Source: an uncultured Anaerolineaceae bacterium (lineage in GTDB: Bacteria; Chloroflexota; Anaerolineae; Anaerolineales; E44-bin32). Taken from it: 63,310 nucleotides of DNA. Both the position numbers and the translations under genes were made by a program. This document shows positions 3,689-49,495 of the stretch, in pieces. The notes beneath the pieces were generated by a model. It was given only the letters and a program-made list of their open reading frames with translations, did no database searches and was not told where the DNA came from. The stretch spans positions 1 through 63,310 of the forward strand of contig CAYLOP010000003.1 of NCBI GenBank assembly GCA_964385305.1. The letters are read 5' to 3'. The number at the start of each line of letters is the position of its first letter. The stretch's first letter is position 1.

Positions 3689-4492
3689 ATGTTCCAGAGG
3701 AATAGGCGCGGCGGGCTCAAACAGGCGATTGACCGGGCTACGGATCCCGAACTTCAGGATCTGCGCGCACAAGTTGCAGAGAGACAAGAACGAGTTGCTC
3801 AGCTTGAACTCGAACTATCGGAAACTCGCATTCATCTAGATCGCTTTGAGGGGGAGCTCGAATCCCGGCTCGGAGACTTACAACGCCAGTTGAAAGAACT
3901 TGAGGAACAACTGGAGGATGCTCGCAGGCGCGCCGCTCATCGTGCACAATGGGGGGATCATCCTGAATCTCCAGAGCTCGCCGAGGATGTGGTTGAGCAA
4001 TTCCGCAAGACATGGTCACAAGGCGAAAGACCCCCATTACCATCAGCCCCAGAGCAAGAGGATAGCGAGACGTCAGAGGCGCTCAAAGTGCTCTTTCGAA
4101 AGCTTGCAAAACGGTTCCATCCCGATCTGGTGCAAGATCCTGAAGAAAAAAAGCGGCGAGCGCGGAAGATGACAAAGGTCAATCAAGCCTACGCTGCTCG
4201 GGATCTGGAAACGCTGCGCCAGATGGCAGAGGAGCCAACCCAACCTGAGGTAGCGGAACAGAAGACGCGCCCGGAGTTGGTTAAAGAACGCTATATGGAG
4301 ATTCGAAGGCTTGACAGCGTAATCCGTGAGCTAGAATTCTCGTTGCAGCGGCTTACGAACTCACATACTGTTAGGCTTATGCTGGATGTGACCGTCGCTC
4401 GCCGTGCAGGCAGAGACTTGCTTGAGGAGATGGCTAATGATCTGCGTGTGGAGATCGCCCGGGTAGAAGTAGAACTCGCCGCATTGCGCTGA
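3689..4492 (+). CDS. Coiled-coil protein with an internal J-domain-like segment (HPD motif)
   Basis: ORF track gives 3647-4492; ATG 3689 (MFQRNRRGG) is the preferred start. LKVLFRKLAKRFHPDLVQDPEEKKRRARKMTKVNQAYAARD has the J-domain helix II-HPD-helix III pattern. It is flanked by heptad-rich Glu/Arg/Leu segments. Confidence 0.55.
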   Translation: MFQRNRRGGLKQAIDRATDPELQDLRAQVAERQERVAQLELELSETRIHLDRFEGELESRLGDLQRQLKELEEQLEDARRRAAHRAQWGDHPESPELAEDVVEQFRKTWSQGERPPLPSAPEQEDSETSEALKVLFRKLAKRFHPDLVQDPEEKKRRARKMTKVNQAYAARDLETLRQMAEEPTQPEVAEQKTRPELVKERYMEIRRLDSVIRELEFSLQRLTNSHTVRLMLDVTVARRAGRDLLEEMANDLRVEIARVEVELAALR

Positions 4493-16747: not shown

Positions 16748-17638
16748 TTATGTGTAGAACGTGTTGACGATAACGAGTGCAAAGAGGATGAGAATGATGA
16801 CAAATTCGAAAAACGCTATTGAACCAAGCAAGATCCACTGTGATTTAGTCAAGGGAAAGCGTTCGAGCCAGGATGTGATGAAGAGGGGCACTTCCATGTG
16901 CTCTGGCTCCGACACGTAAAATTCGCTCGCATCAACGGCATGTGAAGGTATCGGGGTCGGTTCCAACACTGGTTTGAACGCCATGTCGGGGGCAACCTCG
17001 GGCATATCTTCCGGTTCGGGCAGCGTTGGGTTAATGAGGGCATCGGTGAGTTCGTGTATGTCATCCGTATCCATGATCGGAGGAAATTTCAGTAGATTTG
17101 CTGCGAAGTGCTCGATGGCATCGGTCTGGACAATGCGAGCCCGGGGGCGTGCTTGATCGATGTGCGCGTGGGGATTGGTGAAGATCATGACAGGTTCAAC
17201 TTCGGGCAAGTCGTAGCCAAGTTCACGGAAATAATGGTGGATCACTTGGGCCATCCGCACCGTTTCGGCTTGTGGGTTGGAAGAAGCTCTTTGGAACCTG
17301 CGCGCGCGGCTATTGAATGTTTGCCACTCTTCACCTTTCGCGCGGAACACGCCACGAACGGGAATGGGATTAAGAACGCGGGCACCTTGGGGACTCAATA
17401 GTACCATGGGTATCAAGAACGTTGTACCAGGGAGGACAATATTTCGGATGAGTGTATGATCTTCGCCGAGGCTTCTGTTTAGTCTGTGTGTGGTGAAATC
17501 CTGAGCTTGCATTTTGCTATACCATGACAGGCCATATCTCAAGCTTCCCCGGATACGATTCTCAAGGCTGATGGCACCATCTTCATCCCGAAATTCCGAT
17601 TGATCAATCATATTCATACGCATTCCCCTACTACGCAC
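16748..17638 (-). CDS. Tail-anchored membrane protein with a NERD-like N-terminal domain
   Basis: 296 aa. IRNIVLPGTTFLIPMVLLSPQGARVLNPIPVRGVFRAKGEEWQTF...NPQAETVRMAQVIHHYF follows the NERD layout, though the catalytic residues are unclear. Pro-rich linker. C-terminal TM segment ILLGSIAFFEFVIILILFALVIV. Confidence 0.4.
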   Translation of the reverse strand: MRSRGMRMNMIDQSEFRDEDGAISLENRIRGSLRYGLSWYSKMQAQDFTTHRLNRSLGEDHTLIRNIVLPGTTFLIPMVLLSPQGARVLNPIPVRGVFRAKGEEWQTFNSRARRFQRASSNPQAETVRMAQVIHHYFRELGYDLPEVEPVMIFTNPHAHIDQARPRARIVQTDAIEHFAANLLKFPPIMDTDDIHELTDALINPTLPEPEDMPEVAPDMAFKPVLEPTPIPSHAVDASEFYVSEPEHMEVPLFITSWLERFPLTKSQWILLGSIAFFEFVIILILFALVIVNTFYT

Positions 17639-21586: not shown

Positions 21587-23962
21587 CTATCTATTGGCTT
21601 CTCGCATGGGCGCGGTCAGCAGTGCACCAAGGTAGGCGATCGCGCCAACAGCAAAGGTGGCAGAGAGTCCGAGATCGAGTGCGAGCATCGCGGAAAGCAC
21701 GCCGCTAATACCGGAGACAGCACCATTGATAGCCCATGCCCATGGGATCATGCCGGGGAATCGTCCCTCGATGTGTCGCAGCCCTGCTGCGAAGGGGACA
21801 CCCATCAGCAGCCCTATCGGGGCTAGGCATACAAACGCAAGGGCGAGACGTCCTATGAGGTTCCATGGCAAGGCGAGGTGGATCACTCTGGGAAGGAGTA
21901 AGGCGAGCAGTGCGAGCAGGAGGACAAGCGCGGCGAGCGTTTTACGAAGATCCAAGCGCGGCGAGAGATCACTTCCGATGCCGGAAAAAACCAGTAGCGT
22001 GAAAAGAACCGTAGCGAAGGCTATCGTCGGATGGTCTAACAGGAGTGTGAGGCGTTGGATGAGCGGGATCTCGATCAGGAGGTAACCCGCGCCGAGCAAC
22101 CCAAAGTAGAGCACCATTCGGGGTTGCATTACGCCTTGGCTAGCTCTTCGCCGTATTAAGAAGAGCGGAGCAATCGCCAGAGGGATGGCGAGCAGAAGCA
22201 TCAGACCCAGCAAGGCCAGAAGGACGAGATAGCCGCTTCCGCCAAAGGGTTGCCAATTCAAGCCCAGCGAGGCCAGCACTTCCGGAGTCTGACGCCAGCG
22301 GAAGAAGTGGAAAAAGAAGGGGCGATTGTCGGTTGGTGGCTGAAGGTTGAAGTCATAGCCCATAATGGTTGCTTGTGGATCTTCGATCAATGCTACGAAC
22401 AACTCATGGTAGACATCATGCGGGAGTTGGTTATAGCGGTTGAGTTCATGCGGTTCGAGATCTGGGAGGTAGATTGGGTCGTAGCCATTCCGTATCAGAA
22501 ATGCGCGGGTTGTGCTGAGTTGGTCCTGCGAGAACGGTTGGCGAGACGCTATCATCGTCGCTGTGCGCATCCCACGAAAGGCGATTAAAGCGGGCGAGGG
22601 GTCTTCGACACCTAACGATCGGATGGCTTCAAGCAGCGTAGCCCAAGCCCGAGCTGACTCGCTGGGTGGGGTGCCAAGCCAGCGTGTGACCACGAGCAGG
22701 CCCTTTTCCGATAGCTGACTGTATGCTTGGCTCAGAGATTCTACGGTCAGGCCGAAATTCTCCGTGAGGCTGAAGGCTCCGGATGTCACGGGTCGGTATC
22801 CCTCACGCAGTGAAAACTGGATCACATCGTAACGATGGTCTTCCGCATGTAGGGCACCGCGCATGGTGCGACTGCTGATCGACACACGCGGGTGAGCTAG
22901 CAAGCCATAGCTGTAATTGGCATAGGGGCTAGCGAGGATTTGAGGGATAAGCGGATCATCGTAGACCGCAGTGACATGCGAGGCCCCAGCAGCCAGTGCA
23001 ATAACGGTATCAAGTCCTCCACCGGGGCAAAGGATGAGTGTCTGTGCATGAGGGTGGAGTTCATAGGCAAGAGATGCCGGCATGAAGGACGCCAGTTCTT
23101 CGGCATCGTGTGTGTTCGGGTCGATCGCGCTGATCGGGGATGGGTCGTCGCCGTCGGTGAAAAGCGAGGCTTGAAGCGGTAGGGTTACAGTGGCATTCAT
23201 GCTCAGCCCTGGGAATACGTGAACCGTGCTGCTCTCTACGATGTCAAACCGGGATGAGGCACTCCAGCGAGCAAGTTTGGTGTCGGCATCAGGGGCGAGG
23301 CGGATCATGGAAAGCGCTTTATAGGGCGAGAGGCGGAGTTCGAACGCAGGGGGTGTGAAGATACCGATCAAGATGGTGAATATGGAGATCATGGCAAGCA
23401 CGGCTCGCATGGCTGGTTGTGGGGCCAGTACGAGGGCAGAGAGTAAGCCAAGGGCAATCGCCAGGGCGGCAGCACCCTCGCCGCCCAGAAGTGCTAACGC
23501 AGCCAATGCGACCGGGCAGCCCACAGCGGAGCCGATGAGATTGGCAGCGTAGGGACGGTGTGCCTCCGAACCGGCATCAGCCAGACACGCACCGACGGTC
23601 CAGCCGGTGAAGAAGAAGGGCAAGGTCGCGGCAAGGAAATAAAGCAGTAAAACCCCCACCTGCTTTCGGTCCCAGGCAATGCTGTAAGAGTCGAACGGGA
23701 TTAGGTTGATCGTCGCATATACCAGAGCGCAGGCCGCCGCGAAGGCGAGTGCCAGGCGATGGAGTGGGGGATGCTTGGGCTGTGCAGCGAGCGCGACCCC
23801 ACTGGCGGCAAAGCCCATAACCGCCAGGCTCACGACAAGAAAGGCGAAGTGGTAGAACTGCTGAACCGCGAAGAGGCGCGTCAAGGTGATCTCGAATGCA
23901 AGCGACGCGGCTGAAATCAGCCCAAGGCCTAGGGTGATTTCTCTCCGATTATGTATGGACAT
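21587..23962 (-). CDS. Polytopic membrane protein fused to a spermidine-synthase-like methyltransferase-fold domain
   Basis: N-terminal FEITLTRLFAVQQFYHFAFLVVSLAVMG plus many TM segments at both ends and a soluble middle domain. ATG 23962 follows GAGGAG (the ORF track extends to 24076). Confidence 0.6.
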   Translation of the reverse strand: MSIHNRREITLGLGLISAASLAFEITLTRLFAVQQFYHFAFLVVSLAVMGFAASGVALAAQPKHPPLHRLALAFAAACALVYATINLIPFDSYSIAWDRKQVGVLLLYFLAATLPFFFTGWTVGACLADAGSEAHRPYAANLIGSAVGCPVALAALALLGGEGAAALAIALGLLSALVLAPQPAMRAVLAMISIFTILIGIFTPPAFELRLSPYKALSMIRLAPDADTKLARWSASSRFDIVESSTVHVFPGLSMNATVTLPLQASLFTDGDDPSPISAIDPNTHDAEELASFMPASLAYELHPHAQTLILCPGGGLDTVIALAAGASHVTAVYDDPLIPQILASPYANYSYGLLAHPRVSISSRTMRGALHAEDHRYDVIQFSLREGYRPVTSGAFSLTENFGLTVESLSQAYSQLSEKGLLVVTRWLGTPPSESARAWATLLEAIRSLGVEDPSPALIAFRGMRTATMIASRQPFSQDQLSTTRAFLIRNGYDPIYLPDLEPHELNRYNQLPHDVYHELFVALIEDPQATIMGYDFNLQPPTDNRPFFFHFFRWRQTPEVLASLGLNWQPFGGSGYLVLLALLGLMLLLAIPLAIAPLFLIRRRASQGVMQPRMVLYFGLLGAGYLLIEIPLIQRLTLLLDHPTIAFATVLFTLLVFSGIGSDLSPRLDLRKTLAALVLLLALLALLLPRVIHLALPWNLIGRLALAFVCLAPIGLLMGVPFAAGLRHIEGRFPGMIPWAWAINGAVSGISGVLSAMLALDLGLSATFAVGAIAYLGALLTAPMREANR

Positions 23963-24158
23963 CCCGCCTTTCTCCTCGATCCTCTTAATTTTAGCTGAAG
24001 TGCGGGTTGCCACAAATAGGGCTGGGATAGACGTTGATGGTCTGAAAAGGACAACTGAGGAGTTAACGGATTTCAAATCTCCTATTTACATACTTCCAAT
24101 GTAGAGAGGTTATCCTTCATTATGAATTCGAAATGTATCAATAGTCGGAGGAGTAACG

Positions 24159-27156: not shown

Positions 27157-28023
27157 ATGAGGGAGCAAATGGAGGCAGTCATGAGTGAGGAGCACGAAAT
27201 GGTCGCATCGAACGAGACGAAGGGGATCGGGAACGGGTGCCGTCGCGCATTCTGGTGGGTTATTCGCTTGCTGGTCGTGATCAGCTTTGGTGTTGGAGTT
27301 GGAGCGGGTGTGTATTATGGTGTTCCCGCGCTCTACCGAGGTGTTATCGAGCCAACGCGCCGTAACACACAGCGTATCGCGGATCTGGAGGGAGCTCTTG
27401 CTCAAGAGCAAGAGGCGAGTGGGAAACAGCTTGAGCAGAGTGATAATCGCCTCGCAGATGTAGAAGGGAAGCTCGCACAGCAAGCAGAGGATTTGGCAAC
27501 CCTGCAAGCTGAGATGGCAACCCTTGAGGGCGAACAAGACGACTTGCGTGCGGAGATCGGCATATTGGGGCGCTTGGCGGATCAGATGGAGAGTCTGGCG
27601 ATTGAATTAGAAGACACCGTTGCCAGAGTTGATGGTGTGGAGATGATCCTTGAGACTTCTGGGGCGCCTGCACAGCAGCTTGAGCATCGCATCCAGTTGA
27701 TCCGTGCGATGACCATTCTGACACGCGCGCGACTCTGGCTTGTGCAAGACGACCTGGGCACGGCGGCCGAGGACATCGAAGATGCTAGAGCAGTGCTCCT
27801 TGACGCCCTTCGCGACGCAACAGATGAGGATATTGAGAAGTTGGAACCGATTGTGCGGCGCCTGGATCTTGCACTAGACGATATCCGCGTTTCACCTTCG
27901 GTTGCCGCAGACGAGCTCGAGATTGCTTGGAAGCTTCTAAGCGAAGCGGCCACCCCTCCAGCCACCGAGGCTGAGGATATACTTAAAGATACCCTTGAGG
28001 AGAGTACGTATGATTCAAGATGA
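27157..28023 (+). CDS. Single-pass membrane coiled-coil protein, function unknown
   Basis: 288 aa. TM segment FWWVIRLLVVISFGVGVGAGVYYGV followed by a long Glu/Leu/Ala coiled coil. Starts 1 nt after the upstream stop. Confidence 0.5.
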   Translation: MREQMEAVMSEEHEMVASNETKGIGNGCRRAFWWVIRLLVVISFGVGVGAGVYYGVPALYRGVIEPTRRNTQRIADLEGALAQEQEASGKQLEQSDNRLADVEGKLAQQAEDLATLQAEMATLEGEQDDLRAEIGILGRLADQMESLAIELEDTVARVDGVEMILETSGAPAQQLEHRIQLIRAMTILTRARLWLVQDDLGTAAEDIEDARAVLLDALRDATDEDIEKLEPIVRRLDLALDDIRVSPSVAADELEIAWKLLSEAATPPATEAEDILKDTLEESTYDSR

Positions 28024-28687
28024 TGCACAATACCAGGATGAGCAGGAACTCGTGGATAGCACGCCGCCAGAGGTTCCAGAAGCAGTTGCCGAAGAACCTG
28101 TGGGCATAGAAACGGAAACGGTGGAACCACCGGAGGAAGATATCATTCCTCAACCACCGAGCAAGTTTCGCCGTATTCTCCGGACGATCTTGCTGTGGGC
28201 GATCGGCCTGCTCGGTGTATTTGCACTTGGGGTTGGTGTGGCATGGTTCACGCTTGTAAACCCAGTGCGCGCAGACAAGCAGGCTTTAATGGAAGAACTG
28301 GATGCAGCGCGTGCAGACGCTGAGGTGCAACTCTCTGATCTGCAGACCGAGCATGATTTGGAAATCCAATCGCTGCGTGATGAAATAGCAAAAGATTCTC
28401 TCCACATGGATTTGCTCACGGTTATGGTGGATGTGTCCTCTGCAAGGCTTGCACTGGACCTGAATAATGATGTGGGAGCTCGTGCCGCATTGGCAGGTAG
28501 TGATGAGCGTTTGGAGCAATTACAGACCGGGCTGCAGGGGAATGGGTTTGAGGCTGTAAAGGAACTGCGCGCTCAACTTACCTTGGCGCTGGATTCTCTC
28601 GAATCAAAGCCGGCCGTTGCGGATAGGGCGCTTGAGCAACTCGTCGATGATTTGCTTAAATTGGAGCGCTCCCTTTTTAGTGATTAG
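28010..28687 (+). CDS. Single-pass membrane coiled-coil protein with architecture like the preceding gene
   Basis: GAGGAG lies 6 nt before ATG 28010 (ORF track 27995). Acidic N-terminus, TM segment ILLWAIGLLGVFALGVGVAWFTL, then coiled coil. Confidence 0.5.
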   Translation: MIQDDAQYQDEQELVDSTPPEVPEAVAEEPVGIETETVEPPEEDIIPQPPSKFRRILRTILLWAIGLLGVFALGVGVAWFTLVNPVRADKQALMEELDAARADAEVQLSDLQTEHDLEIQSLRDEIAKDSLHMDLLTVMVDVSSARLALDLNNDVGARAALAGSDERLEQLQTGLQGNGFEAVKELRAQLTLALDSLESKPAVADRALEQLVDDLLKLERSLFSD

Positions 28688-28749: not shown

Positions 28750-29277
28750 TCATGAGGGATCTTGTTCGGATAGGAACTCAGCTTGAAGCCGTTGTACAAC
28801 GATGCGGTCCGTTGGAAAGATCAACTCAGGGAGGTCTTCAAGTGGGAACAGACGCACCTCGGTGAGATCTCCGCCGGCACGTGCACCGTCGAGCGATTTA
28901 GCCGTTCCGCGATACCAAATCCCGACAGTATGGTTCTCTGGATCATGAAAGTTAGAGAGAACGGCGTAAACGTGCGCTAAGTCGACCTCCAGACCTGTCT
29001 CCTCCCGCATCTCACGTATGGCGGCTTCTTCGGTGGTTTCATCCCACTCAATGTGCCCGCAGGGGATGCACCAGCCGCCATCCTGTCTTTGGCCCAGGAG
29101 CAACTTTGACCCGGAAAGCAAGATTACGGCCACGCCGGTGGTGGGGTTTCGATAGTGGATCCAGCCGCAGGACGGACATCGGAGTCGTCGTTGATCATCA
29201 TCCTGGAAGGGTTTAAGTGAAGAGCCGCACTGTGGGCAGAATCGATATTGATCTTCGTTGGAATGGTTTACGGGCAT
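28750..29277 (-). CDS. NudC-like Nudix hydrolase with an N-terminal zinc ribbon
   Basis: CPQCG...CPSCG ribbon, then the Nudix box GHIEWDETTEEAAIREMREETGLEV. ATG 29277 (MPVNHS) preferred over 29355, which would overlap the upstream gene. Confidence 0.8.
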   Translation of the reverse strand: MPVNHSNEDQYRFCPQCGSSLKPFQDDDQRRLRCPSCGWIHYRNPTTGVAVILLSGSKLLLGQRQDGGWCIPCGHIEWDETTEEAAIREMREETGLEVDLAHVYAVLSNFHDPENHTVGIWYRGTAKSLDGARAGGDLTEVRLFPLEDLPELIFPTDRIVVQRLQAEFLSEQDPS

Positions 29278-29314
29278 GATTGTTCTCGTGGTATCCCGTA
29301 GCTCGGATCTCTTT

Positions 29315-30421
29315 TCAATAGCGCAGTAGCGCCCCGATACGGCCGGCGCGTTCAAGATCAGGGTTATCTCGGATGACCTCTACCTCACCGCCCTCGGCGA
29401 GTACCTTTCGAATAGTGAGTTCGACCGCGTCGGGGATTTTCTCCACACGATCGCCACAGAAAGGACACACATCAAATTCCTGTGCGGAAATGTGGCCGCA
29501 ACCCACGCATCGAAATCCCGGAGCACGGTAGCCTTCACTGACCACGAGCGTCTGTACATTTCCTGCATGTGCCGCGCCCAAAGTGTCATCGAGTCGGATG
29601 ACGCCGTCACGCCCTTTTGCAGCGGCGGTCACAATCGCCTGAACCAAACGGCTCTCCTTCGCTTGCTTGGCGGCTAGGACAACTTCCATCGCTTTTTCAA
29701 GGACCTGCGCGTGACCGGCAATCATGTCCATGGGGAAACTACCCATAACAAGGCTCTGCCATGTCCGTGGGAGGAAATCGATGAATTGGGCGACGTTTGA
29801 TTCCGTACCACCCACCAATACCCTTCGAATCTGCTTTGCTTCAAAGAATCGTGCTGCAAAACGTGCGGACTGCTTGAAGTTCCGGTCGATCATCTCTTCC
29901 GAGTAGCGAGTCTGCCCGGCGATTCCGCCTCGCCTTCCGGTGGCTTGTGAGCCGCCGCCGAGCTTGGTATGTCGTATGGCTTCCCCCATCGTCCCTTGTT
30001 GCTCCCACAACTCACCAAGGTGGAAGTGAAACATGCGGATGCCTTGTTTGTCGACAAGCGCAACGCCGTAGTTCCCGTAATTATCGATAAGGTCGACAAG
30101 CGGCTTAACATATGGCCGGTTGAGACGACGGGCTCTGTCGCGGACGGGAAGTGAGAGCGCATAGCTGCGAAAGAAGTGGTCTTTGGCACATGAAAAAAGG
30201 ACCAAACTTCGGCCGGACCAATCGTATTCATGCTCAATATAGCGCTCGATGGCTTCAACATCACCGGCCGCATTCTCATCAAACTCCTTGATAAGCTGAC
30301 GAAGTCGCAACTTGTACGCATCCGCTGAACCCAGGGAGGGGTCCACACTGAGGTAAACGCTAAGCACGGGAAAGCCTGGCTGGTAGGCGATAAACTCCTG
30401 CAGGTCCTTCACGGTAAGCAT
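29315..30421 (-). CDS. Bacterial eRF1/Pelota-fold protein, Vms1/ANKZF1-like (baeRF-type), with a C-terminal zinc ribbon
   Basis: 368 aa. Loop HTKLGGGSQATGRRGG (Q159 at nt 29945-29947) resembles the GxxQ/GGSQ loop of Vms1. CVGCGH...CPFCGD ribbon is inserted in the last domain. Ends in RIGALLRY, like eRF1/Pelota domain 3. Confidence 0.6.
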   Translation of the reverse strand: MLTVKDLQEFIAYQPGFPVLSVYLSVDPSLGSADAYKLRLRQLIKEFDENAAGDVEAIERYIEHEYDWSGRSLVLFSCAKDHFFRSYALSLPVRDRARRLNRPYVKPLVDLIDNYGNYGVALVDKQGIRMFHFHLGELWEQQGTMGEAIRHTKLGGGSQATGRRGGIAGQTRYSEEMIDRNFKQSARFAARFFEAKQIRRVLVGGTESNVAQFIDFLPRTWQSLVMGSFPMDMIAGHAQVLEKAMEVVLAAKQAKESRLVQAIVTAAAKGRDGVIRLDDTLGAAHAGNVQTLVVSEGYRAPGFRCVGCGHISAQEFDVCPFCGDRVEKIPDAVELTIRKVLAEGGEVEVIRDNPDLERAGRIGALLRY

Positions 30422-39180: not shown

Positions 39181-39975
39181 CTACGCTCTCACCCCGTTGA
39201 TCTCCTGACGGACGGCGCGATACAAGTGATCCGCCTTCAATTCCTGCAAAGTATAGCATGGCCCGCCAAGGTGCTCGGCGAGTTTGTTTGCAAGCCCTTG
39301 ATCAAACGCAGCGTGTTCCATATTGATCACAACGGAACGGATATCCGCCTCACGGATTTTATCGGCCACCTGATGAGCTTCTTGCTGGGGAGGCAAATCC
39401 CCCATGGAGACATTGCCTGCACCATCGGTTAGGAGGATCATCAAGGGCAACATATCTTTTCGGCTGAAACTTTCCTTTACGAACATTTCATAGGCCAAGG
39501 TTAGCCCAGCGGAGAGAGGGGTCTTCCCGCCGACCGGAATGTCGGCAAGCGCTTGTTGAGCAAGCTGGACAGAATTGGTTGGGGGAAGCACAGTTAGGGC
39601 GCGATCTTTCTGAAAAACGATAAGACCGACGCGGTCACGATGTTGGTAGGCGTCTGTGAGGAGCGAAAGAATGGCGCCCTTGGTCGCGGACATTCGTTCG
39701 GCAACAGCCATCGACCAGGAAGCGTCGACGACAAAGAGGATCAAATTGGCGGCCTTCCGCACGCGCACTTTCTGATGCAAATCAGAGGTGTGGATTGATA
39801 AAGCGACCCGTTTTCGTTGTGCGCGACGTCGGCGTTGGTATGGGGCAGCTGCGCGAAATGTAGCATCAAAGGCGATGTCGGATGCGTTTTTCTTTGCAGG
39901 CCGGGCCATGATGTAGCGGCCCCGTTTCCGATCTGTGCGTGTTTGGCTGCGACGTCCCCCGTGGCCGCGCGTCAT
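39181..39975 (-). CDS. chlD: VWA (integrin I-like) domain protein equivalent to the C-terminal half of a chelatase D subunit; the frame is open upstream to 40155 without any start codon
   Basis: MIDAS motif FVVDASWSM plus LLTDGAGN. The same frame reads sense codons from 40155 down to 39976, encoding an acidic linker and GHGGRRSQTRTDRKRGRY, with no ATG/GTG/TTG. Confidence 0.7.
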   Translation of the reverse strand: MTRGHGGRRSQTRTDRKRGRYIMARPAKKNASDIAFDATFRAAAPYQRRRRAQRKRVALSIHTSDLHQKVRVRKAANLILFVVDASWSMAVAERMSATKGAILSLLTDAYQHRDRVGLIVFQKDRALTVLPPTNSVQLAQQALADIPVGGKTPLSAGLTLAYEMFVKESFSRKDMLPLMILLTDGAGNVSMGDLPPQQEAHQVADKIREADIRSVVINMEHAAFDQGLANKLAEHLGGPCYTLQELKADHLYRAVRQEINGVRA

Positions 39976-40133
39976 GCGGTCTAGCTGGCCTTCGAGGTGA
40001 CGGGGGACAAATATCTCTCCGACCTTGACTTTATCGCCACCTTCCCACCAGCGTGCATGAAGTGAATCCAGTGTTGTCTGGCGAGAGATTTCGGTTGGAT
40101 CGGGAGTTGAGGCTTCTTCTTCGACCTCGTCTG

Positions 40134-41240
40134 CTAAACTACGCCGGCTTTTTTTTTATCCGGAGCAGGTTCTTCCTCAGAAGAGACTGGTTCGGCTTCC
40201 TCGCCGCCCAATTGCGACTGGATCTGGTCGATGCGGTTTTGAAGATCATCAAGATGGATTTCTACTTGCTGGAAGGGGCTTCGCCGCAGTCTATGAGGGA
40301 GCGCGAGTTCCGCAGCAAGTGCGATGTCTTCGTGCGTGATCTTTGTTCGGCCTTCGAAAGCTGCGTGAGCGCGCGCAGATTTTAGAATCACCATGTCAGC
40401 CCGGTGCCCATCGACCTGCATGGAGGAGGTCAGGGCCGCAATGGCAAGCAGATCGCGCTTGGTGTAGGTGACTTTATCGACCAGTTGCCGGGCGTTTACG
40501 ATCTTCTGTGAGAGGGTGTGTTCCTTTTCCATCCAGCGTGTTCGGAATGACTCGGGTTCCTCTTCGAAGCTCAGGTTGTATTCCATGATTGCAACCCGAT
40601 CGCGCGGATCCTGTAAGCCACGAATCTCAACAGACAAAGCGAACCGGTCGAGCAGTTGAGGCCGGAGGTCGCCTTCTTCAGGGTTCATGGTCCCAACCAG
40701 GATGTATCTGGCAGGGTGACTGAATGAGATCCCCTCTCTTTCGACGATGTTCATTCCCAGCGCGGCTGAATCAAGGAGCACATCAACAACGTGGTCGTCT
40801 AGAAGGTTGACCTCATCAATATATAGCAGCCCTCGATTTGCTGCGGCAAGCACACCGGGCTCGAAATGGCGCTCACCCTCTTTGATAGCGCGCTCAATAT
40901 CCAAAGTCCCAACGACGCGATCTTCTGTCGCAGAGACCGGTAAATCGACGAAAGGGGTGCGTCGCATTTCGACTGGAAGGCTCTCATGCTTTGCGGCGCG
41001 CTCCTTGCATTCCGTACACCAGGTTGTGGGACGTTCGGGGTCGCAAGCAAATCGGCAATCTGCGACGACTGGCACCTCGGGTAGGAGGGCGGCCAACGCC
41101 CGCGCTGCAGTGGATTTTGCTGTTCCACGTTCGCCACGGATTAAAACACCCCCAATACGTGGGTTGACAGCGTTTAGGATCAATGCACGGCGCATACGCT
41201 CTTGACCGACGATTGCGGTGAAGGGGTAAACAACTGCCAT
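40134..41240 (-). CDS. chlI: AAA+ chelatase small subunit (ChlI/BchI type)
   Basis: YPFTAIVGQERMRRAL, Walker A GERGTAKST, Walker B LLYIDEVNLL, VGTMNPEEGDLRPQLLDRF. The acidic Pro-rich tail EEEPAPDKKK ends at the A9 run. Confidence 0.9.
   Translation of the reverse strand: MAVVYPFTAIVGQERMRRALILNAVNPRIGGVLIRGERGTAKSTAARALAALLPEVPVVADCRFACDPERPTTWCTECKERAAKHESLPVEMRRTPFVDLPVSATEDRVVGTLDIERAIKEGERHFEPGVLAAANRGLLYIDEVNLLDDHVVDVLLDSAALGMNIVEREGISFSHPARYILVGTMNPEEGDLRPQLLDRFALSVEIRGLQDPRDRVAIMEYNLSFEEEPESFRTRWMEKEHTLSQKIVNARQLVDKVTYTKRDLLAIAALTSSMQVDGHRADMVILKSARAHAAFEGRTKITHEDIALAAELALPHRLRRSPFQQVEIHLDDLQNRIDQIQSQLGGEEAEPVSSEEEPAPDKKKAGVV
40149..40157 (-). other. A9 homopolymer (T9 on the + strand): candidate -1 frameshift / slippage site joining the chlI-like and VWA frames
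   Basis: The coding strand reads GAT AAA AAA AAA GCC GGC GTA GTT TAG. A shift to -1 after the run reads AGC CGG CGT AGT TTA GCA and continues into the VWA ORF. Confidence 0.55.
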
Positions 41241-41299
41241 TGATAAAATTCTCCCGCGAGATTATACCCCATTCCATATATGCATGGACACAACGAAGG

Positions 41300-41363: not shown

Positions 41364-43250
41364 ATGATAAGTGATCAGGAAACCGGCGACACAGGGCGCA
41401 TACCTTCAGAGGAGGTTGAAGGGTTGGAATCTAAGCCGGTAGACGCCCTGCAGGAAATAGCAAACCTAGAAGACCTGAATGAGCATGAGGAAGCCAGTGA
41501 TCATGAGGTTGCTGAGGATGTTAAGTCCATGGGTGCAGAAGATGATGCAATGCATCCTATGGACGTCCTGCTTGAAGCGGAGTCTTATGAGTTAGAGATT
41601 CCAAAACGGGGCGAAATCCGTACAGGAACCATCGCGCGTGTGACAGAGACGGACATCCTGGTGGATGTCGGCGCGAAGTCGGAAGGCGTGATTTCCTCAA
41701 AAGAGCTCGAAAGGTTATCCCCAGAGCAACGCGCTGAGCTGAACGTTGGTACAGACATCACGGTTTATGTCATACGTTCGAGCGGACGCGATGGCACCAT
41801 CGTTTTATCGCTCGCACGAGCGGAGGAAGAACAGGACTGGCGTGAAGCCGAGCAACTGCTCGAAAGCCAGGATCTGCACGAAGGGATAGTAAGCGGCTAC
41901 AACAAGGGCGGCTTGATCGTGAAACTCGGCAGCCTGCGTGGATTTGTGCCGGCCTCACAAGTTAGCCTATCGCGACGACGAAGAGCGCAAGGTCAGACGC
42001 CCGATCAGCGCTGGAGCAAGATGGTCGATGAGCCGATCATCACCAAGGTGATCGAGGTCGACCGGCGACGCAATCGCCTTATTCTCTCCGAACGCGCAGC
42101 AGCACGGGAAGCACGCGACGCGCTCAAAGAACGGTTGATCTCCGAACTCGAACCTGGCGCTGTACGTCAAGGTCATGTCATTAGCCTGGCGGACTTCGGC
42201 GCTTTTGTTGACATCGGCGGCGCGGATGGTCTTGTCCATCTCTCCGAAATCTCTTGGAGACGTATTACCCACCCACGTGAATTGCTAAAAGTCGGGCAAA
42301 AGGTTGAAGTTAAAGTCTTGGGTGTGGATGTTGAGCGAAAACGAATCAGCCTTTCCATGAAAGAGTTAGAGGCTGATCCGTGGGATTTGATTTTCGAGCA
42401 GTACAGTGAGGGACAACTTGTTGAGGCGACGATAACGAAACTCACCAAATTTGGCGCTTTTGCATCCTTAGCAGGGAGTGAGTCTTACGATATTGAAGGT
42501 TTGATTCACATTTCGGAATTATCCGATCGTCGGATCGAACACCCGCGTGAGGTTGCACAGGAAGGTCAAACGGTTGCGCTGCGTATCCTGAAAATCGATC
42601 GAAAGCGACGCCGAATCGCGCTGAGCTTGAAGCGCGTTGATTCACCGGCTTATGCAGATCAAGATTGGCAAGTTGCCATGCAGGAAATCGAAAGCTTAGC
42701 TGAGGAAGGTATAGACATCCTTGCTGCCGAAGGAGAGGATTTCACTGATGTAGAAACGCCGGAGGACGTTGCGCTGGAGTCAATCTCAGAAGCTTCTCCA
42801 CATGAAGATGAAGTGGACGCACGACTGTCTGATGATGAGGGTGAACCACTCACGGATGAGGCTATAGGTGATTCGGGCGAGCCTGAAATATCGGAAGCCG
42901 AGCTTGAGGAGCTGGAAGCTGAGCTTGATGAGTCGGGAGCTGAGCTTGAGGAGCCGGAAGCTGAGCTCGAGGAGTTGGAAGCTGAGCTTGAAGAGCCGGA
43001 AGCTGAGCTTGAGGAGTTGGAAGCTGAGCTTGAGGAGCCGGAAGCTGAGCTTGAGGAACTGGAAGCTGAACTTGAAGAGCCGGAAGCTGAGCTTGAAGAG
43101 CCGGAAGCTGAACTTGAGGGGTTAGAAGCTGAACCCGACGAGATGGATGAGGGTGAGGAAAAAATTCCTCTGGAACCCGAACTTACTGCCGATGAAGAAC
43201 CCGACGCCGAGTTGAAGGATCCTGGAGGCGGTGAGGAAACTGAAGAATAG
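41364..43250 (+). CDS. rpsA: 30S ribosomal protein S1 with acidic N- and C-terminal extensions
   Basis: Four recognisable S1 OB motifs (GTIARVTETDILVDVG, GIVSGYNKGGLIVKLG, GHVISLADFGAFVDIG, ATITKLTKFGAFASL). The C-terminal tail consists of EAELEEL/P heptads. Confidence 0.85.
   Translation: MISDQETGDTGRIPSEEVEGLESKPVDALQEIANLEDLNEHEEASDHEVAEDVKSMGAEDDAMHPMDVLLEAESYELEIPKRGEIRTGTIARVTETDILVDVGAKSEGVISSKELERLSPEQRAELNVGTDITVYVIRSSGRDGTIVLSLARAEEEQDWREAEQLLESQDLHEGIVSGYNKGGLIVKLGSLRGFVPASQVSLSRRRRAQGQTPDQRWSKMVDEPIITKVIEVDRRRNRLILSERAAAREARDALKERLISELEPGAVRQGHVISLADFGAFVDIGGADGLVHLSEISWRRITHPRELLKVGQKVEVKVLGVDVERKRISLSMKELEADPWDLIFEQYSEGQLVEATITKLTKFGAFASLAGSESYDIEGLIHISELSDRRIEHPREVAQEGQTVALRILKIDRKRRRIALSLKRVDSPAYADQDWQVAMQEIESLAEEGIDILAAEGEDFTDVETPEDVALESISEASPHEDEVDARLSDDEGEPLTDEAIGDSGEPEISEAELEELEAELDESGAELEEPEAELEELEAELEEPEAELEELEAELEEPEAELEELEAELEEPEAELEEPEAELEGLEAEPDEMDEGEEKIPLEPELTADEEPDAELKDPGGGEETEE
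42894..43139 (+). repeat. Eleven tandem copies (plus a partial copy) of a 21-nt in-frame repeat, GAAGCTGAGCTTGAGGAGCCG/TTG, inside rpsA
   Basis: Units are phased every 21 nt from 42894 to 43124 with 0-4 substitutions each. They encode EAELEEP/EAELEEL. Confidence 0.9.
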
Positions 43251-45962: not shown

Positions 45963-46174
45963 TTTACAGCACAGAATCGCAAGCCTGGTGTACCTCTGAT
46001 GCGGTTGGTGGCGATGGATCTCCTATTAAATGTACAGGGCAAGGCGATGCCTACGCATCGTTCCGCCAAGGCTATTTCGTCCGGCAAACCTTGGCCTCCG
46101 TACTATAGGCCGAGGGTGCGGAACATTTAACACGGAACGCATTTGAACGGTATAATCCCGTTTTGGGGGTGTTC

Positions 46175-47548
46175 GTGGCGAAATCAAAGGTTCAATACGT
46201 CTGTCAGCAATGTGGGCGCACGGCAGTCAAGCCTCTCGGGCGCTGCCCACAGTGTGGGGCGTGGAGCAGCATGGTGGCTGAGCCCGTTACGCCTGAAAGA
46301 TCTAGGCATGTGGCAACGGGTATCCGGACGCATTCTAAGCCGCGCAGCCTTATAGAGATTGAAGGCGACAGCGAACGTCGTCTGCCACTAGGGATCGAGG
46401 AATTTGCACGCGTCCTCGGCGGCGGCGTGGTCCCAGGTTCCATTGTCCTCGTAGGGGGAGATCCAGGAATTGGCAAGTCAACTCTCCTTCTCCAGATGGC
46501 TTTGATCATGGCCGAACAAGGGAGGGTCCTTTACGTTTCCGGTGAAGAGTCCGAGCGTCAACTCAAGGCTCGCGTCCTACGACTCAAGGATGGCGGGAAA
46601 ACCCCAGAAGCCCTTTACCTGCTCACCGAGACGAATGGTGAGGCGATCCTTGCTCACTTGAATGCGCTACAACCGGAATTGGTGGTTGTGGACTCCATCC
46701 AAACAATGTACATGCCCGAAATTGACTCCAGCGCTGGCTCGATCTCACAAGTTCGCGAAAGCGCTTCGCGTCTTCAAGTCTACGCAAAGACCGCAGACGT
46801 AGCCGTGTTTTTAGTTGGTCACGTGACAAAGCAGGGTGCCATAGCGGGTCCGAAGGTATTGGAGCATCTTGTAGATACCGTGCTTTATCTTGAAGGCGAC
46901 CCTTACCATGCCTATCGCCTGCTGCGTTCGGTCAAGAATCGCTTCGGTGCGACAACCGAAGTTGGTGTTTTTGAGATGCGGGCGACCGGAATGATCGAGG
47001 TGCCTAATCCATCGGAGGCGTTTCTAGCGGAGCGAGCCGTCAACGCCCCCGGATCGGCAATCGCGGTAACCATGGAGGGAACTCGCCCATTGTTGGTGGA
47101 GGTCCAAGGCCTGACAAGCGCAACCTCCTTTGGCCACCCCCGCCGCACCGCGAACGGCGTTGATTTCAATCGTCTGCTGCTTACCATTGCGGTACTTTCG
47201 CGACGAGTGGGGCTTCGCCTCGGGGATCAAGATGTTTTTGTGAATGTGGTTGGAGGGTTACATGTGAATGAGCCCGCAGCCGATCTTGCGATCGCCGCCG
47301 CAATCGGCTCCTCTATGCGCGATATGGCCTTGCCCGCGGATATGGCTTTTATTGGGGAGATCGGATTGTCGGGTGAACTGAGGGCGGTCCCACAGATGGA
47401 CACTCGCCTGCGCGAGGCGAGCAAGTTGGGTTTCAAGCGGGTTGTTGTTCCCAAGCGCGTGCGGTCTGGTGGGGATCAACCGAAAGATATTGACGTTCAA
47501 TACGCTCGAACCGTGAGGGAGGTATTTTCCACCATTTTCAACCGCTGA
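46175..47548 (+). CDS. radA: DNA repair protein RadA/Sms
   Basis: Zinc finger CQQCG...CPQCG, Walker A GDPGIGKST, KNRFG motif, and a Lon-like C-terminal domain. GTG 46175 gives MAKSKVQYVC (ORF track 46163). TATAAT lies at 46151-46156. Confidence 0.95.
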   Translation: MAKSKVQYVCQQCGRTAVKPLGRCPQCGAWSSMVAEPVTPERSRHVATGIRTHSKPRSLIEIEGDSERRLPLGIEEFARVLGGGVVPGSIVLVGGDPGIGKSTLLLQMALIMAEQGRVLYVSGEESERQLKARVLRLKDGGKTPEALYLLTETNGEAILAHLNALQPELVVVDSIQTMYMPEIDSSAGSISQVRESASRLQVYAKTADVAVFLVGHVTKQGAIAGPKVLEHLVDTVLYLEGDPYHAYRLLRSVKNRFGATTEVGVFEMRATGMIEVPNPSEAFLAERAVNAPGSAIAVTMEGTRPLLVEVQGLTSATSFGHPRRTANGVDFNRLLLTIAVLSRRVGLRLGDQDVFVNVVGGLHVNEPAADLAIAAAIGSSMRDMALPADMAFIGEIGLSGELRAVPQMDTRLREASKLGFKRVVVPKRVRSGGDQPKDIDVQYARTVREVFSTIFNR

Positions 47549-48151
47549 ATCATCTCACCGCGGAAGAATTTGTCCGTGCGCTCCGTATCCAAATAAAGAA
47601 AACAGCCAGGTGATGGTGCGATTGCGTGTTTTTGCGAAACGAAAGCGCGTTTTCGAGCGTTCCGGAGTCGAAGCCCCGATCTCGCAGGGGCATCAAGGTT
47701 TTTAAGATTGAGCATTGCTTAGGTTTGGGATGATTTTCTCGCTTGCGAATCCCCATAGATCTAGGGGGGAGACTGGAGTCAGGACCATAATATGGGCAGC
47801 AGGCGAGAACGCTGTTCGGATGGTTTCAGGCATGAAACAGATGTTGTCCGTTTGATCCTTTAACATATCGATATCTTAAATCTTTCATTGTTTTTAGGTT
47901 GTAGAAGGCTTATCGTATTGAAGATGGCTAAGAGATTTGTTAGAATTCAGCCATCGCGGTTGGTATGCCAGTAAGAGGAGGAGTTCTTCGCCATCGCACT
48001 CCCGACTCTATACAATCCCTAACGCCATGCACGGGGCTGTTGCACCTGCGGCACTTGCGCATTCCACCCGACACTTTGATTCAAGAGATAGCGAAACGAA
48101 AACTCAGTTTTCTGGGTATTAGGCCTACTGCGCCTTTTGGTGGAGGTGAGC

Positions 48152-49495
48152 ATGAACGCAGAGCAACTCTGGCAGGCAACGCTTGGTCAACTTCAATTGG
48201 AAATGCCTCGAGCATCGTTTGAGACATGGGTTCGCGATGCGGAGTTGCTCACCTACGAAGATGGGGAATATATCGTCGGCGTTCAAAATGCCTATACGCG
48301 CGATTGGTTAGAAGATCGCCTACTATCAACAGTCAATCGTGTGATGACCAGCATCCTCGGCCAGACTGTCCGAGTGCGCTTTGTGGTTTGGCAGGGAGAA
48401 GTGTCCGAGGAAATGCAGGAACCCGCGCTGAGAACATTCGAGACACCTGCGCCGCCCACGGTTGGAAATTCGCGGCTGAATGGGCGCTACACGTTTGATA
48501 GTTTTGTCGTGGGGTCTAGCAATCGCCTTGCTCACGCGGCCGCCGTGGCTGTTGCAGAAAGCCCCGCCACCACCTATAACCCACTCTTCCTCCATGGAGG
48601 AGTGGGGCTGGGGAAAACGCATCTTTTGCATGCCGTGGGACAAGCCTGCCAGGAAGCGGGTTTGCATGTTCTGTATGTATCCTCCGAAGAGTTTACCAAT
48701 GATTTAATCAATGCCATCCGCACTCATAAAACGGATGCTTTTCGGGAACGATACCGCCGTATTGAAGTGCTTCTGATCGATGACATCCAATTCATTGCTG
48801 GAAAAGAATCCACACAGGAAGAATTTTTCCACACGTTCAATACACTCCACGGACAGGACAAGCAGATTGTGATCACATCGGATCGATCACCCAAGGCGCT
48901 TGTCACGCTGGAAGAAAGGCTCCGGTCGAGGTTTGAATGGGGCCTGACGGTAGATATCCAACACCCCGATTTTGAAACCCGCCTCGCCATTCTGCGTTCC
49001 AAGGCGGAGCGAGCTGGTCGCGAGGTGGATCCCGCGCTCATGGAGATCGTCGCGCAACGGGTTCAAAGCAATATCCGAGAATTGGAAGGCGCACTGACCA
49101 GAGTGCTGGCGTATTCCGATTTAAGTGGCATTCCGCTGAGTCGGGAACTGGTTGGGACCGCGCTCATTGACCTTAATCCCAACAACGGTGTATTGACTGC
49201 AGATCGCATTATCTCCGCCGTCGCCGAACAGTTCAATGTTGATGAGGATCGACTGCTCAGCCGGGAGCGTTCCAGGCTTGTCGCCTTACCCAGGCAGGTG
49301 GCGATGTACCTTATTCGCAACGAAACCACTGCCTCCTTGCCAAGCATTGGCAAGGCGCTCGGTGGGCGAGATCATACAACGGTCATGTATGGGTGTGAGA
49401 AGGTTGCGGATATGCTGGAAACCGATGACGCGCTGCGGAGACAAGTGTTATTGCTGCGGGAGAGGCTGTATAGTAATTCAGGGGTTCCCTATTAG
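48152..49495 (+). CDS. dnaA: Chromosomal replication initiator DnaA
   Basis: Walker A GGVGLGKTHL, LLIDDIQF, and the C-terminal DNA-binding helix GGRDHTTVMYGCEKV. GGAGGTG lies upstream of ATG 48152. Confidence 0.95.
   Translation: MNAEQLWQATLGQLQLEMPRASFETWVRDAELLTYEDGEYIVGVQNAYTRDWLEDRLLSTVNRVMTSILGQTVRVRFVVWQGEVSEEMQEPALRTFETPAPPTVGNSRLNGRYTFDSFVVGSSNRLAHAAAVAVAESPATTYNPLFLHGGVGLGKTHLLHAVGQACQEAGLHVLYVSSEEFTNDLINAIRTHKTDAFRERYRRIEVLLIDDIQFIAGKESTQEEFFHTFNTLHGQDKQIVITSDRSPKALVTLEERLRSRFEWGLTVDIQHPDFETRLAILRSKAERAGREVDPALMEIVAQRVQSNIRELEGALTRVLAYSDLSGIPLSRELVGTALIDLNPNNGVLTADRIISAVAEQFNVDEDRLLSRERSRLVALPRQVAMYLIRNETTASLPSIGKALGGRDHTTVMYGCEKVADMLETDDALRRQVLLLRERLYSNSGVPY

Follow-up and report, generated by a model that had tools for sequence, protein, structure and literature searches.

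The gene considered here raises the question of how a protein domain is expressed whose reading frame offers no start codon over its first 60 codons. It lies at 39181-41240 on the minus strand of the window, by which we mean the whole stretch of 63 kb of DNA that was analysed. An open reading frame for a ChlI/BchI-type AAA+ ATPase ends there shortly past a run of nine A residues, and a frame for a ChlD-type linker and VWA domain begins in the -1 register at the same run. We think, with a probability of roughly 85%, that the locus is a single gene expressed by recoding, of the fs-chlD type known from the literature, from which both a short ChlI-like and a long ChlD-like protein are made.

Anatomy and family matches of the two frames

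The elements of the locus are as follows, with the basis of each assignment in brackets.

40134..41240, minus strand: zero-frame ORF for a ChlI/BchI-type AAA+ ATPase of 368 aa, the short product (translation and domain matches)
41251..41255, minus strand: Shine-Dalgarno-like GGGAG, 10 nt 5' of the chlI ATG at 41238-41240 (read from the sequence)
40149..40157, minus strand (T9 on the plus strand): A9 slippery run, AAA AAA AAA or KKK in frame 0, the candidate recoding site (sequence and conservation)
40156..40158, minus strand: TAA closing the -1 frame, overlapping the run and directly 5' of it (-1 frame reading)
40134..40136, minus strand: zero-frame stop TAG, four codons past the run, which ends the short product (sequence)
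39181..40155, minus strand: -1 frame extension of 324 codons with an acidic/basic ChlD-type linker and a VWA domain (-1 frame reading and profiles)
40036..40050, minus strand: WWEGG motif of the -1 frame, 25 codons 5' of the earliest possible start codon (alignment)
39973..39975, minus strand: earliest ATG/GTG/TTG of the -1 frame, an ATG at codon 61 (start-codon scan)
39277..39741, minus strand: VWA (integrin-I-like) domain with the MIDAS motif DASWS at 39712-39726 and TDG further on (Pfam)

The ChlI ORF contains a Walker A motif GERGTAKS and a Walker B motif LYIDEV, and it ends in ...EEEPAPD KKK AGVV*, which is read as GAT AAA AAA AAA GCC GGC GTA GTT TAG. According to the conservation profile, its tail past about residue 330 is acidic and non-conserved, with the KKK near the end. 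After the TAA, the -1 frame continues through 324 sense codons, KKSRRSLADEVEEE...DASWS...GVRA, to a TAG at 39183-39181, and this extension supplies the C-terminal 322 residues of a 686-aa conceptual long product. A preliminary description of the locus had already placed the end of chlI at the A9 run, and our reading agrees with it in every detail. The same holds for the -1 frame that is shut by the TAA and then long open (about 322 codons had been given), for the lack of ATG, GTG and TTG up to codon 61, and for the classical -1 heptamer A_AAA_AAA, which is present in phase in frame 0.

Pfam assigns Mg_chelatase, AAA_5 and AAA_lid_2 to the ChlI ORF, and VWA and VWA_2 to residues 139-293 of the -1 frame product. 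Against TIGR02030 (BchI-ChlI) the ORF scores 427.4 bits over profile positions 1-322 of 337, which is below the equivalog cutoff of 466.95 bits, and it matches the ChlI structures 8osf and 6l8d with E about 1e-105. The solved structures nearest to the gene products are these two together with BchI 1g8p and the BchD VWA domain 2x31; the VWA frame matches 2x31_A with E = 2e-19, and its MIDAS residues D144, S146 and S148 are invariant across the aligned homologues. The -1 extension aligns to profile positions 353-640 of TIGR02442 and 341-606 of TIGR02031. It is the C-terminal part of a ChlD, consisting of linker and VWA/MIDAS, and has no N-terminal AAA+ module of its own. When both frames are joined to the 686-aa conceptual fusion, TIGR02442 is matched in a single stretch (residues 5-665 against profile positions 1-640 of 641) with 788 bits and thus above its cutoff of 779.45, whereas the separate halves reach 511 and 269 bits and both stay below it. 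The equivalog cutoff of TIGR02031 (BchD-ChlD), 499.55 bits, is not attained by the fusion, which scores 458.8. Pfam and NCBIfam hence bear out the domain order first described, a ChlI-type AAA+ module followed by a linker and a VWA domain with DASWS.

Homologues of the -1 frame product number in the thousands in Anaerolineae, and the frame is 62-84% identical to homologues. Nearly all of them are publicly annotated as split, 293-320-aa "VWA/ChlD" proteins. The 324-codon frame is intact and has kept more than 100 invariant residues along with the MIDAS, and purifying selection on it is evident from the alignment.

Conservation of the junction and alternatives to recoding

Orthologous loci were compared in 80 species-level genomes of Anaerolineae/Chloroflexota, whose assemblies are mostly short-read; 79 loci entered the junction alignment and 72 the tally of start codons in the linker. 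The chlI gene lies immediately upstream of the VWA frame in all 80 loci. The VWA frame stands at -1 in 74 of them as read, and in 75 when L026 is counted, for which a nanopore indel inside its chlI was allowed for. All 79 aligned junctions contain an A run, mostly A9 or A10 and rarely A7-8; the 74 loci at -1 comprise 46 with A9, 22 with A10 and six with A7-8, so that 68 of 74 carry A9-10. The run reaches an information content of 2 bits per position and its flanks at most 0.3 bit, which makes it the sole conserved nucleotide island at the junction. The base right after it is G in 63 of the 79 junctions, and a zero-frame stop follows 1-23 nt past the run in almost all loci. The phase "T + A9" of the window recurs in 17 related loci, "T-A9-G" is common to all of the closest relatives (L002, L004, L005, L011 and L012), and the exact phase "GAT-A9-G" is shared with L002, L004 and L005. 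The relatives with A7 and A8 all keep the in-phase heptamer, although chance permits that in two of three phases. An alignment of orthologues had been proposed as a check on the first reading of the locus, and the A run (79/79), the -1 offset (75/80) and the near zero-frame stop all proved to be kept.

A run of nine A is in itself not remarkable, as one was found in the 63 kb where 0.64 are expected, and at least one occurred in 39 of 100 shuffles. It is the position and the conservation that exceed chance. Runs of at least nine A or T occur 75 times in 871 kb of related loci, and 73 of these are the junction run.

The linker between the run and WWEGG is open in every locus and spans 32-39 codons, and W36, W37, G39, G40, G46, F49, P51 and D59 are invariant in the -1 frame homologues. 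The 80-genome comparison revealed no conserved start codon 5' of the invariant WWEGG. Any ATG, GTG or TTG is missing from the linker in 44 of the 72 loci, and in the other 28 such codons are scattered and not aligned. An "AAPxQ" domain (PF26791) was considered as a further conserved element 5' of the ATG and was rejected, since the motif RAAAPYQ lies 3' of ATG 39975.

These data bear on the view that chlI and the VWA frame are two ordinary genes, in which case the VWA protein would start at ATG 39975, at a non-canonical codon or by termination-reinitiation, and the run would just encode the Lys-rich tail of ChlI. Gene callers do annotate nearly all homologues as separate VWA/ChlD proteins, and in some relatives (L016, L017, L019 and L084) the chlI stop codon shares bases with a GTG or TTG, so that translational coupling may operate in a few loci such as L016, L017 and L084. 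Against two genes stands the invariant segment WWEGG..G..F.PR..D, which precedes the earliest ATG/GTG/TTG and would be lacking from the 264-aa product begun at ATG 39975, and also the fact that candidate starts are missing or unaligned among the relatives. The signal upstream of this ATG is a weak GAAGG at 13 nt, and no motif comparable to the GGGAG of chlI precedes it. A lysine tail would moreover tolerate AAG, which makes up 49% of the Lys codons elsewhere in these genes (AAA 51%), yet the run is never interrupted, and the TIGR02442 cutoff is exceeded by the fusion but by neither half. We therefore consider two independent genes improbable.

An assembly artefact would be the simplest trivial cause, with a true run of A10, or one base longer than read, and a plain in-frame chlI-chlD fusion that needs no recoding. 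Homopolymers are prone to error, and a few in-frame loci look like one-base variants of their relatives: L015 carries A11 against A10 in its relative L023, L083 (P0006) carries A10 against A9 in its sister L084 (P0008), and L088 (P0041) carries A10. States other than -1 were found in four of 14 nanopore MAGs and in one of 66 other genomes (p = 0.003), from which it follows that miscalls at this run do occur. Of the 80 independent assemblies, most of which are short-read, 75 nevertheless show the -1 state, and the zero-frame stop within a few codons past the run in nearly all loci, as well as the exact phase common to the nearest relatives, also speak against an error. The VWA frame stands at -1 behind A9 and A10 runs alike, run length and frame co-varying such that the offset is preserved. 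The junction is thus not explained by a homopolymer undercall, which had initially been named as the alternative, and we regard an artefact as very unlikely.

The few exceptional loci were also considered in their own right. A10 is found in L083 and L088, and L082 has an additional C behind its A9; the sisters L084 and L085 of these in-frame variants are of the ordinary -1 type. The rare in-frame relatives read through ...KKK... into the same linker. In-frame A10 contigs came from the JGI samples 3300009150 and 3300037480, and they could be slipped transcripts caught directly, should these samples be metatranscriptomes. A dnaX-like "reverse" sub-lineage, in which an in-frame gene would keep the run for the short form, was rejected, as most cases are +1-nt variants on short contigs. 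L081 is the one case in which the additional base does not fall in the run, so that the idea depends on a single contig. Likewise, loci with a +1 offset were not taken as cases of RNA-level deletion, since they are concentrated in nanopore MAGs and one of them has another indel in chlI.

It could also be imagined that the tract toggles at the DNA level, with replication slippage switching from cell to cell between a split (A9) and a fused (A10) gene. A9 and A10 alleles do occur in closely related populations (L084 and L083), and in-frame contigs appear occasionally. Such phase variation would let one expect all three frame states at appreciable frequency, whereas a single state accounts for 75 of the 80 loci, and the exceptions go along with long-read assemblies or with contigs that are short and of low coverage. 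To obtain two subunits from one gene, a cell must furthermore contain both products at once, which switching of the DNA fails to provide, and we find this explanation highly implausible. That a once-fused chlD has been frameshifted and decays as a pseudogene past the run, for which one could cite that no large-subunit partner gene is visible nearby, can practically be dismissed given the intact and conserved -1 frame and the same "frameshift" at the same place in 75 species.

Probable recoding and its route, compared with known systems

For the recoded gene, the following expression scheme is proposed. Standard decoding would stop at the TAG four codons past A9 and yield the 368-aa ATPase, whereas the register would move back by one base inside the A run in a considerable share of expression events. 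This could occur in two ways, either by a ribosome that slips -1 on A_AAA_AAA, or by an RNA polymerase that inserts one untemplated A and so generates an A10 mRNA. Either route would lead to the identical protein ...PAPDKKKSRRSLADE..., a 686-aa ChlD-type subunit with the predicted junction peptide ...EEEPAPDKKKSR..., in which both routes give DKKKS. The N-terminal AAA+ module of this long product would be identical to the short one, and the linker and the MIDAS-bearing VWA domain would form its C-terminal part. The short and the long protein presumably form an AAA+ motor-adaptor complex of the I/D type. The preliminary description had proposed the same pair of 368 and about 686 aa with a common AAA+ module, which is now backed by the 75/80 conservation and the TIGR02442 match.

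That slippage takes place and is efficient at this A run we infer from heterologous reporters of homologous poly-A sites of other species. In E. coli reporters, poly-A sites of Mg-chelatase fs-genes gave 63% shifted product with A11, 40% with A9 and 10% with A7 (PMC3711429). The tested cassettes, from the Pseudomonas/Burkholderia/Delftia/Herpetosiphon/Methanocaldococcus cluster, likewise have the poly-A at the ChlI/VWA junction. They differ from our case in that they come from other organisms, many of whose genomes carry cobN and make B12, and the reporter assay does not tell slippage in transcription from slippage in translation (PMC3711429).

The fs-chlD literature includes Antonov et al. 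2013 (PMC3711429) and Kuznetsov, Milenkin and Antonov 2022 (PMC9227772), the latter of which cites Antonov 2020 (MBE 37:2268) on chlD frameshifting; these papers bear out the published chlD frameshifting to which the preliminary description had referred. They describe an offset of one base, with -1 as the more frequent, and an AT-rich slippery site (PMC3711429, PMC9227772). A ChlI ORF, a ChlD C-terminal frame at -1, an A9 run at the junction, a zero-frame stop nearby and conservation among orthologues are all found here, as in fs-chlD genes, for which two subunits from one mRNA have likewise been proposed. Frameshift signals in fs-chlD have been reported for the Anaerolineae Brevefilum, Anaerolinea, Levilinea, Longilinea and Ornatilinea, and no large subunit is reported for Brevefilum (PMC9227772). 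The present locus, from an uncultured Anaerolineae-like genome, lies outside these named examples, which include Brevefilum fermentans and Anaerolinea thermophila. The named examples have no large subunit and no known function, and likewise no large-subunit gene was found in the window. A further difference concerns the stimulatory RNA structure downstream, which published sites "usually" but not obligatorily possess, and which was detected neither here nor in 79 relatives.

A close parallel is dnaX with its tau and gamma products (PMC1088944), where two AAA+ proteins with a common N-terminal module also arise from one gene with an A-rich slip site, and where the same outcome is reached by ribosome or RNA polymerase. 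E. coli dnaX uses -1 programmed ribosomal frameshifting at A_AAA_AAG, and Thermus thermophilus dnaX transcriptional slippage at an A9 run (PMC1088944), the same run as here. In dnaX the slip yields the shorter product; here it would yield the longer one, as in Shigella mxiE. The upstream SD-like element and the downstream hairpin that stimulate E. coli dnaX are absent at our locus.

Given recoding, we consider transcriptional slippage no less probable than ribosomal frameshifting and perhaps slightly favoured. Reasons for this lean are the length of the run, which is kept at 9-10 where 7 would do for a ribosome, and the lack of a conserved downstream structure and of a fixed upstream SD-like element. 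When the 50 nt past the run were folded for 79 loci, the mean z was +0.37 relative to the gene body, which is slightly less structured, and the run region of the window itself showed no excess structure (z = -0.02). Position-wise information upstream is flat in the 79 junctions, with no SD-like element at a fixed spacing. The in-phase heptamer is thus present and dnaX-type stimulators (SD-like element and/or hairpin or pseudoknot) are not, and the coding-strand A9 has the length of about nine A/T given as the threshold for transcriptional slippage (PMC1088944), as at sites of the Thermus dnaX, IS-element and mxiE type. The restriction of the run to A9/A10, and what this implies for transcriptional slippage, are discussed in neither PMC3711429 nor PMC9227772.

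Cellular role and meaning of the locus

With ChlI + ChlD (BchI/BchD) and CobS + CobT, the predicted pair shares the combination of an AAA+ motor with an adaptor that has an AAA+-like N-terminus, an acidic/Pro linker and a VWA/MIDAS domain. Those pairs are encoded by separate genes, whereas here the N-terminal module of the D-type subunit would be identical to the I subunit and not a diverged paralogue as in ChlI + ChlD, which means that its Walker motifs would be intact. Canonical Mg-chelatase differs as well, as the scores stay below the TIGR02030 and TIGR02031 equivalog cutoffs and no H/CobN gene is in sight.

Members of TIGR02442, "putative cobaltochelatase", we take to be partners of CobN, in genomes that encode cobN and with the gene close to cobN or to B12/cobalt genes. 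A search of the 63-kb window, and of 6 kb around each of the 80 loci, found neither cobN/chlH nor any tetrapyrrole gene, and the cobalamin link implied in the preliminary description finds no support there. As no large-subunit or tetrapyrrole gene is nearby, the need for an I:D pair is an assumption. The recurrent neighbours are an S1 gene (45 of 80 loci), clpC (33 of 80) and an RNase-H-like/TPR gene (13 of 80); they were discarded as a clue to function because no chelatase partner recurs in the 80 flanks.

By default, we read the gene as encoding a chelatase motor for a partner not yet named. A more speculative possibility, which we hold to be rather doubtful, is that the shift in Anaerolineae is due mainly to RNA polymerase and less to the ribosome, and that, at the same time, the I/D pair is an orphan AAA+/VWA machine without H/CobN, whose job is not tetrapyrrole metallation and which has kept its divergent synteny with the S1 (rpsA-like) gene and clpC. 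If this were true, an A9-10 tuned to polymerase slippage would explain the absence of an mRNA stimulator.

The locus is a further member of the fs-chlD recoding that has been in the literature since 2013, and current understanding is not overturned by it. Nearly all database homologues appear as two entries, a "Mg chelatase ATPase" and a "VWA domain protein" that lacks a start or has a wrong one. Recognising the recoding leads to the correct 686-aa product and avoids a pseudogene or assembly-error call. With alleles from A7 to A11, the 80 species form a natural series that suits the question of how subunit stoichiometry is set via transcriptional versus translational slippage. The locus also highlights a widespread ChlI/ChlD pair in non-photosynthetic Anaerolineae.

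Architecture of the locus and its two predicted products

The locus consists of a ChlI-type reading frame and an overlapping -1 frame, which are joined at a homopolymer run:

41240, minus strand: ATG of the ChlI-type ORF (368 aa), with GGGAG 10 nt upstream
40149-40157, minus strand: run of nine A (A9), read directly from the sequence
40158-40156, minus strand: TAA closing the -1 frame
39183-39181, minus strand: TAG terminating the -1 frame, 324 sense codons after the TAA

The 368-aa ORF ends ...EEEPAPD KKK AGVV* (GAT AAA AAA AAA GCC GGC GTA GTT TAG), and the -1 frame encodes KKSRRSLADEVEEEASTPDPTE...WWEGG...DASWS...GVRA. The first ATG, GTG or TTG of this frame is codon 61 (ATG at 39975); here, as in all its other sequence statements, the preliminary description had read the sequence correctly. 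An A9 run alone is not unusual in 63 kb (one match against 0.64 expected, with at least one in 39 of 100 shuffles), and its significance must therefore rest on position and conservation.

Pfam assigns Mg_chelatase, AAA_5 and AAA_lid_2 to the first ORF and, in the second frame, VWA and VWA_2 to residues 139-293. Against TIGR02030 (BchI-ChlI) the 368-aa product scores 427 bits, and it matches solved structures of ChlI (8osf, 6l8d) and BchI (1g8p) at about 1e-105; for the VWA part the match is to the integrin-I domain of BchD (2x31). A -1 shift would join residues 1-364 of the first ORF to SRRSLADE..., giving 686 aa. This conceptual product aligns without a break (residues 5-665, profile positions 1-640 of 641) to TIGR02442 of NCBIfam, named "putative cobaltochelatase", a single-chain ChlI-ChlD-type subunit. 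It reaches 788 bits, the cutoff being 779.45, whereas the separate halves score 511 and 269 bits; complete membership of this family is thus confined to the recoded product. With the equivalog models of genuine Mg-chelatase I and D, the recoded product stayed below the cutoffs.

The Walker A motif of the ChlI part is GERGTAKS (window 41115-41138, residues 35-42), in which Ala replaces the second Gly of the canonical P-loop; this Ala is found in 70-90% of orthologues. The ATPase also carries a Cys-rich insert, CRFACDPERPTTWCTECKE (window 40996-41057, residues ~62-81), with four Cys (CX3C...CX2C) and with only some of its positions conserved among 74 orthologues; this small insert may bind metal or have a redox role.

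Conservation of the frame offset and the A run

Searches with the -1-frame product returned thousands of Anaerolineae homologues, nearly always annotated as standalone "VWA / ChlD" proteins of 293-320 aa; in a few fragments of 406-466 aa the AAA lid continues in frame into the VWA domain via a ...KKK... junction. Their alignment contains an invariant block (W36, W37, G39, G40, G46, F49, P51, D59) that in the window precedes every possible start codon of the -1 frame. A scan with one genome per species yielded 80 loci, all from Anaerolineae/Chloroflexota MAGs, with a chlI homologue directly upstream in every one. In 74 of them the VWA frame is offset from chlI by -1, and likewise in L026 once an indel within its chlI is recognised; the A run is conserved.

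The preliminary description had also considered a miscalled run, a true A10 that would give one uninterrupted ORF. The 74 loci scored as -1 have A9 (46), A10 (22), A8 (2) or A7 (4), and A9 and A10 loci alike need a -1 shift. Run length and downstream phase hence co-vary so that the offset is preserved, which rules this explanation out. Five loci are in the +1 state, four in the set of 14 "MFD" nanopore MAGs and one in the 66 other assemblies (Fisher p = 0.003); homopolymer miscalls are the simplest explanation. Off-by-one frames at the run were seen in L018, L026 (with its additional chlI indel), L036, L053 and L054 (MFD nanopore MAGs) and in L024; those in long-read MAGs look like such miscalls and would be mistaken for +1 frameshift sites or pseudogenes.

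Rare in-frame layouts occur in L015 (A11) and on three short contigs: L083/P0006 and L088/P0041 (A10; JGI 3300009150 and 3300037480) and L082/P0027 (A9 followed by an extra C; JGI 3300057029). The latter three may stem from errors or from real alleles, or from slipped mRNAs should the samples be metatranscriptomes; any of the four from such a sample could be a direct trace of slippage. The sister contigs L084/P0008 and L085/P0017 have the ordinary A9, -1 layout, and the annotated VWA "start" of L084 is a TTG overlapping the chlI TGA, which shows how gene callers manufacture starts at the junction.

With 79 junctions (78 loci and the window) anchored at the run's 3' end, information content was 2.0 bits at seven positions of the run and 1.5-1.7 bits at two further ones. 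G follows the run in 63 of 79, and all other positions within 40 nt on either side have at most 0.5 bit, mostly at most 0.3. As lysine codons elsewhere in the same genes are nearly balanced (AAA 1060, AAG 1026), the unbroken AAA AAA AAA does not result from codon usage, and the junction run accounts for 73 of 75 A/T runs of at least 9 in 871 kb of these loci (both strands). Between the run and WWEGG lie 32-39 codons, open in every case; ATG, GTG and TTG are absent from this stretch in 44 of 72 loci, the remainder having start candidates at scattered, non-homologous positions. These observations support the recoding interpretation.

Ribosome or RNA polymerase as candidates for the proposed slippage

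The heptamer A_AAA_AAA is present in phase within the run, so that a ribosomal -1 shift, as originally proposed, is possible. Alternatively, RNA polymerase would insert one A into the mRNA at the run. As either route would give the identical protein (...DKKKSRR...), the protein sequence cannot tell them apart. Three observations favour the polymerase at least as strongly. The run is kept at 9-10 by selection, against the 7 needed by the ribosome. Efficient bacterial -1 frameshifting usually requires stimulators, and none appeared: the 50 nt after the run show on average marginally less structure than the genes do elsewhere (mean z +0.37, n = 79), the window fold does not differ from shuffles (z = -0.02), and no conserved upstream position was found among the 79 junctions. 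Finally, the A9 run of Thermus thermophilus dnaX is used in the same way, as described by Baranov et al. (PMC1088944). The four A7 loci all retain the in-phase heptamer, which is compatible with a ribosomal contribution, though chance alone would give this in two of three phases. Recoding itself is very probable; for the level of the slippage, we put transcription against translation at roughly 55:45. In L081, a single contig, an extra base outside the retained A10 (positions 269-278) creates an in-frame fusion, and either alternative frame meets a stop within five codons. In this case the zero frame is the long one, and slippage would yield the short product, a reversal of the dnaX kind.

Genomic setting and relation to published fs-chlD genes

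The window is a housekeeping chromosomal stretch (aconitase, GAF histidine kinases, clpC, radA, dnaA, priA, holA, holB). A divergent S1/rpsA-like gene lies 124 bp upstream of the locus and recurs in 45 of 80 loci (median gap 137 bp), with clpC in 33 and a downstream RNase-H-like/TPR gene in 13. No cobN/chlH or other tetrapyrrole genes were found in the window, and no recurrent ORF of CobN/ChlH size around the 80 loci, which leaves the cobalamin association implied by the family name locally unsupported.

The S1-domain protein (41364-43250, plus strand) has a long, acidic C-terminal tandem repeat, (E/P)EAELEELEAELEE, of ~8 copies (about 42850-43130). Both radA (46163-47548) and dnaA (48137-49495) lie a few kb from the locus, and clpC, priA, holA and holB are in the vicinity; the chromosomal replication origin may lie near the window. 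The product of a minus-strand ORF (29315-30421) is a bacterial protein resembling archaeo-eukaryotic release factors (baeRF_family10, E = 7e-38); this ORF overlaps a Zn-ribbon NUDIX gene (28750-29355) at the start of the latter. An 829-aa ORF (21587-24076, minus strand) and several ORFs of 230-300 aa at 3647-4492, 16748-17638 and 27157-28687 had no Pfam match at E <=1e-5.

That chlD frameshifting has been published, as the preliminary description stated, is borne out. Antonov et al. 2013 defined a Mg-chelatase "fs-gene" cluster with a -1 shift in Pseudomonas, Burkholderia, Delftia, Herpetosiphon, Methanocaldococcus and Methanococcus, and in their E. coli reporters A11, A9 and A7 gave 63%, 40% and 10% shifted product (PMC3711429). 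That both chelatase subunits derive from one chlD gene was proposed by Antonov 2020 (Mol Biol Evol 37:2268), as relayed in PMC9227772. Kuznetsov et al. 2022 catalogued such "frameshifted chlD" (fs-chlD) genes in Anaerolineae, including Brevefilum fermentans, which lacks B12 and chlorophyll pathways and the large subunit; they noted an extra chlI in Anaerolinea, Ornatilinea, Longilinea and Levilinea and called the function of fs-chlD in Anaerolineae unknown (PMC9227772). The window locus is a further example of this recoding, and departs from the published description only in its missing downstream RNA structure and in the tight A9-10 constraint that it shares with its relatives. It is a solid, well-conserved case of a known recoding, useful chiefly for annotating such loci correctly and as a subject on which the mechanism can be tested.
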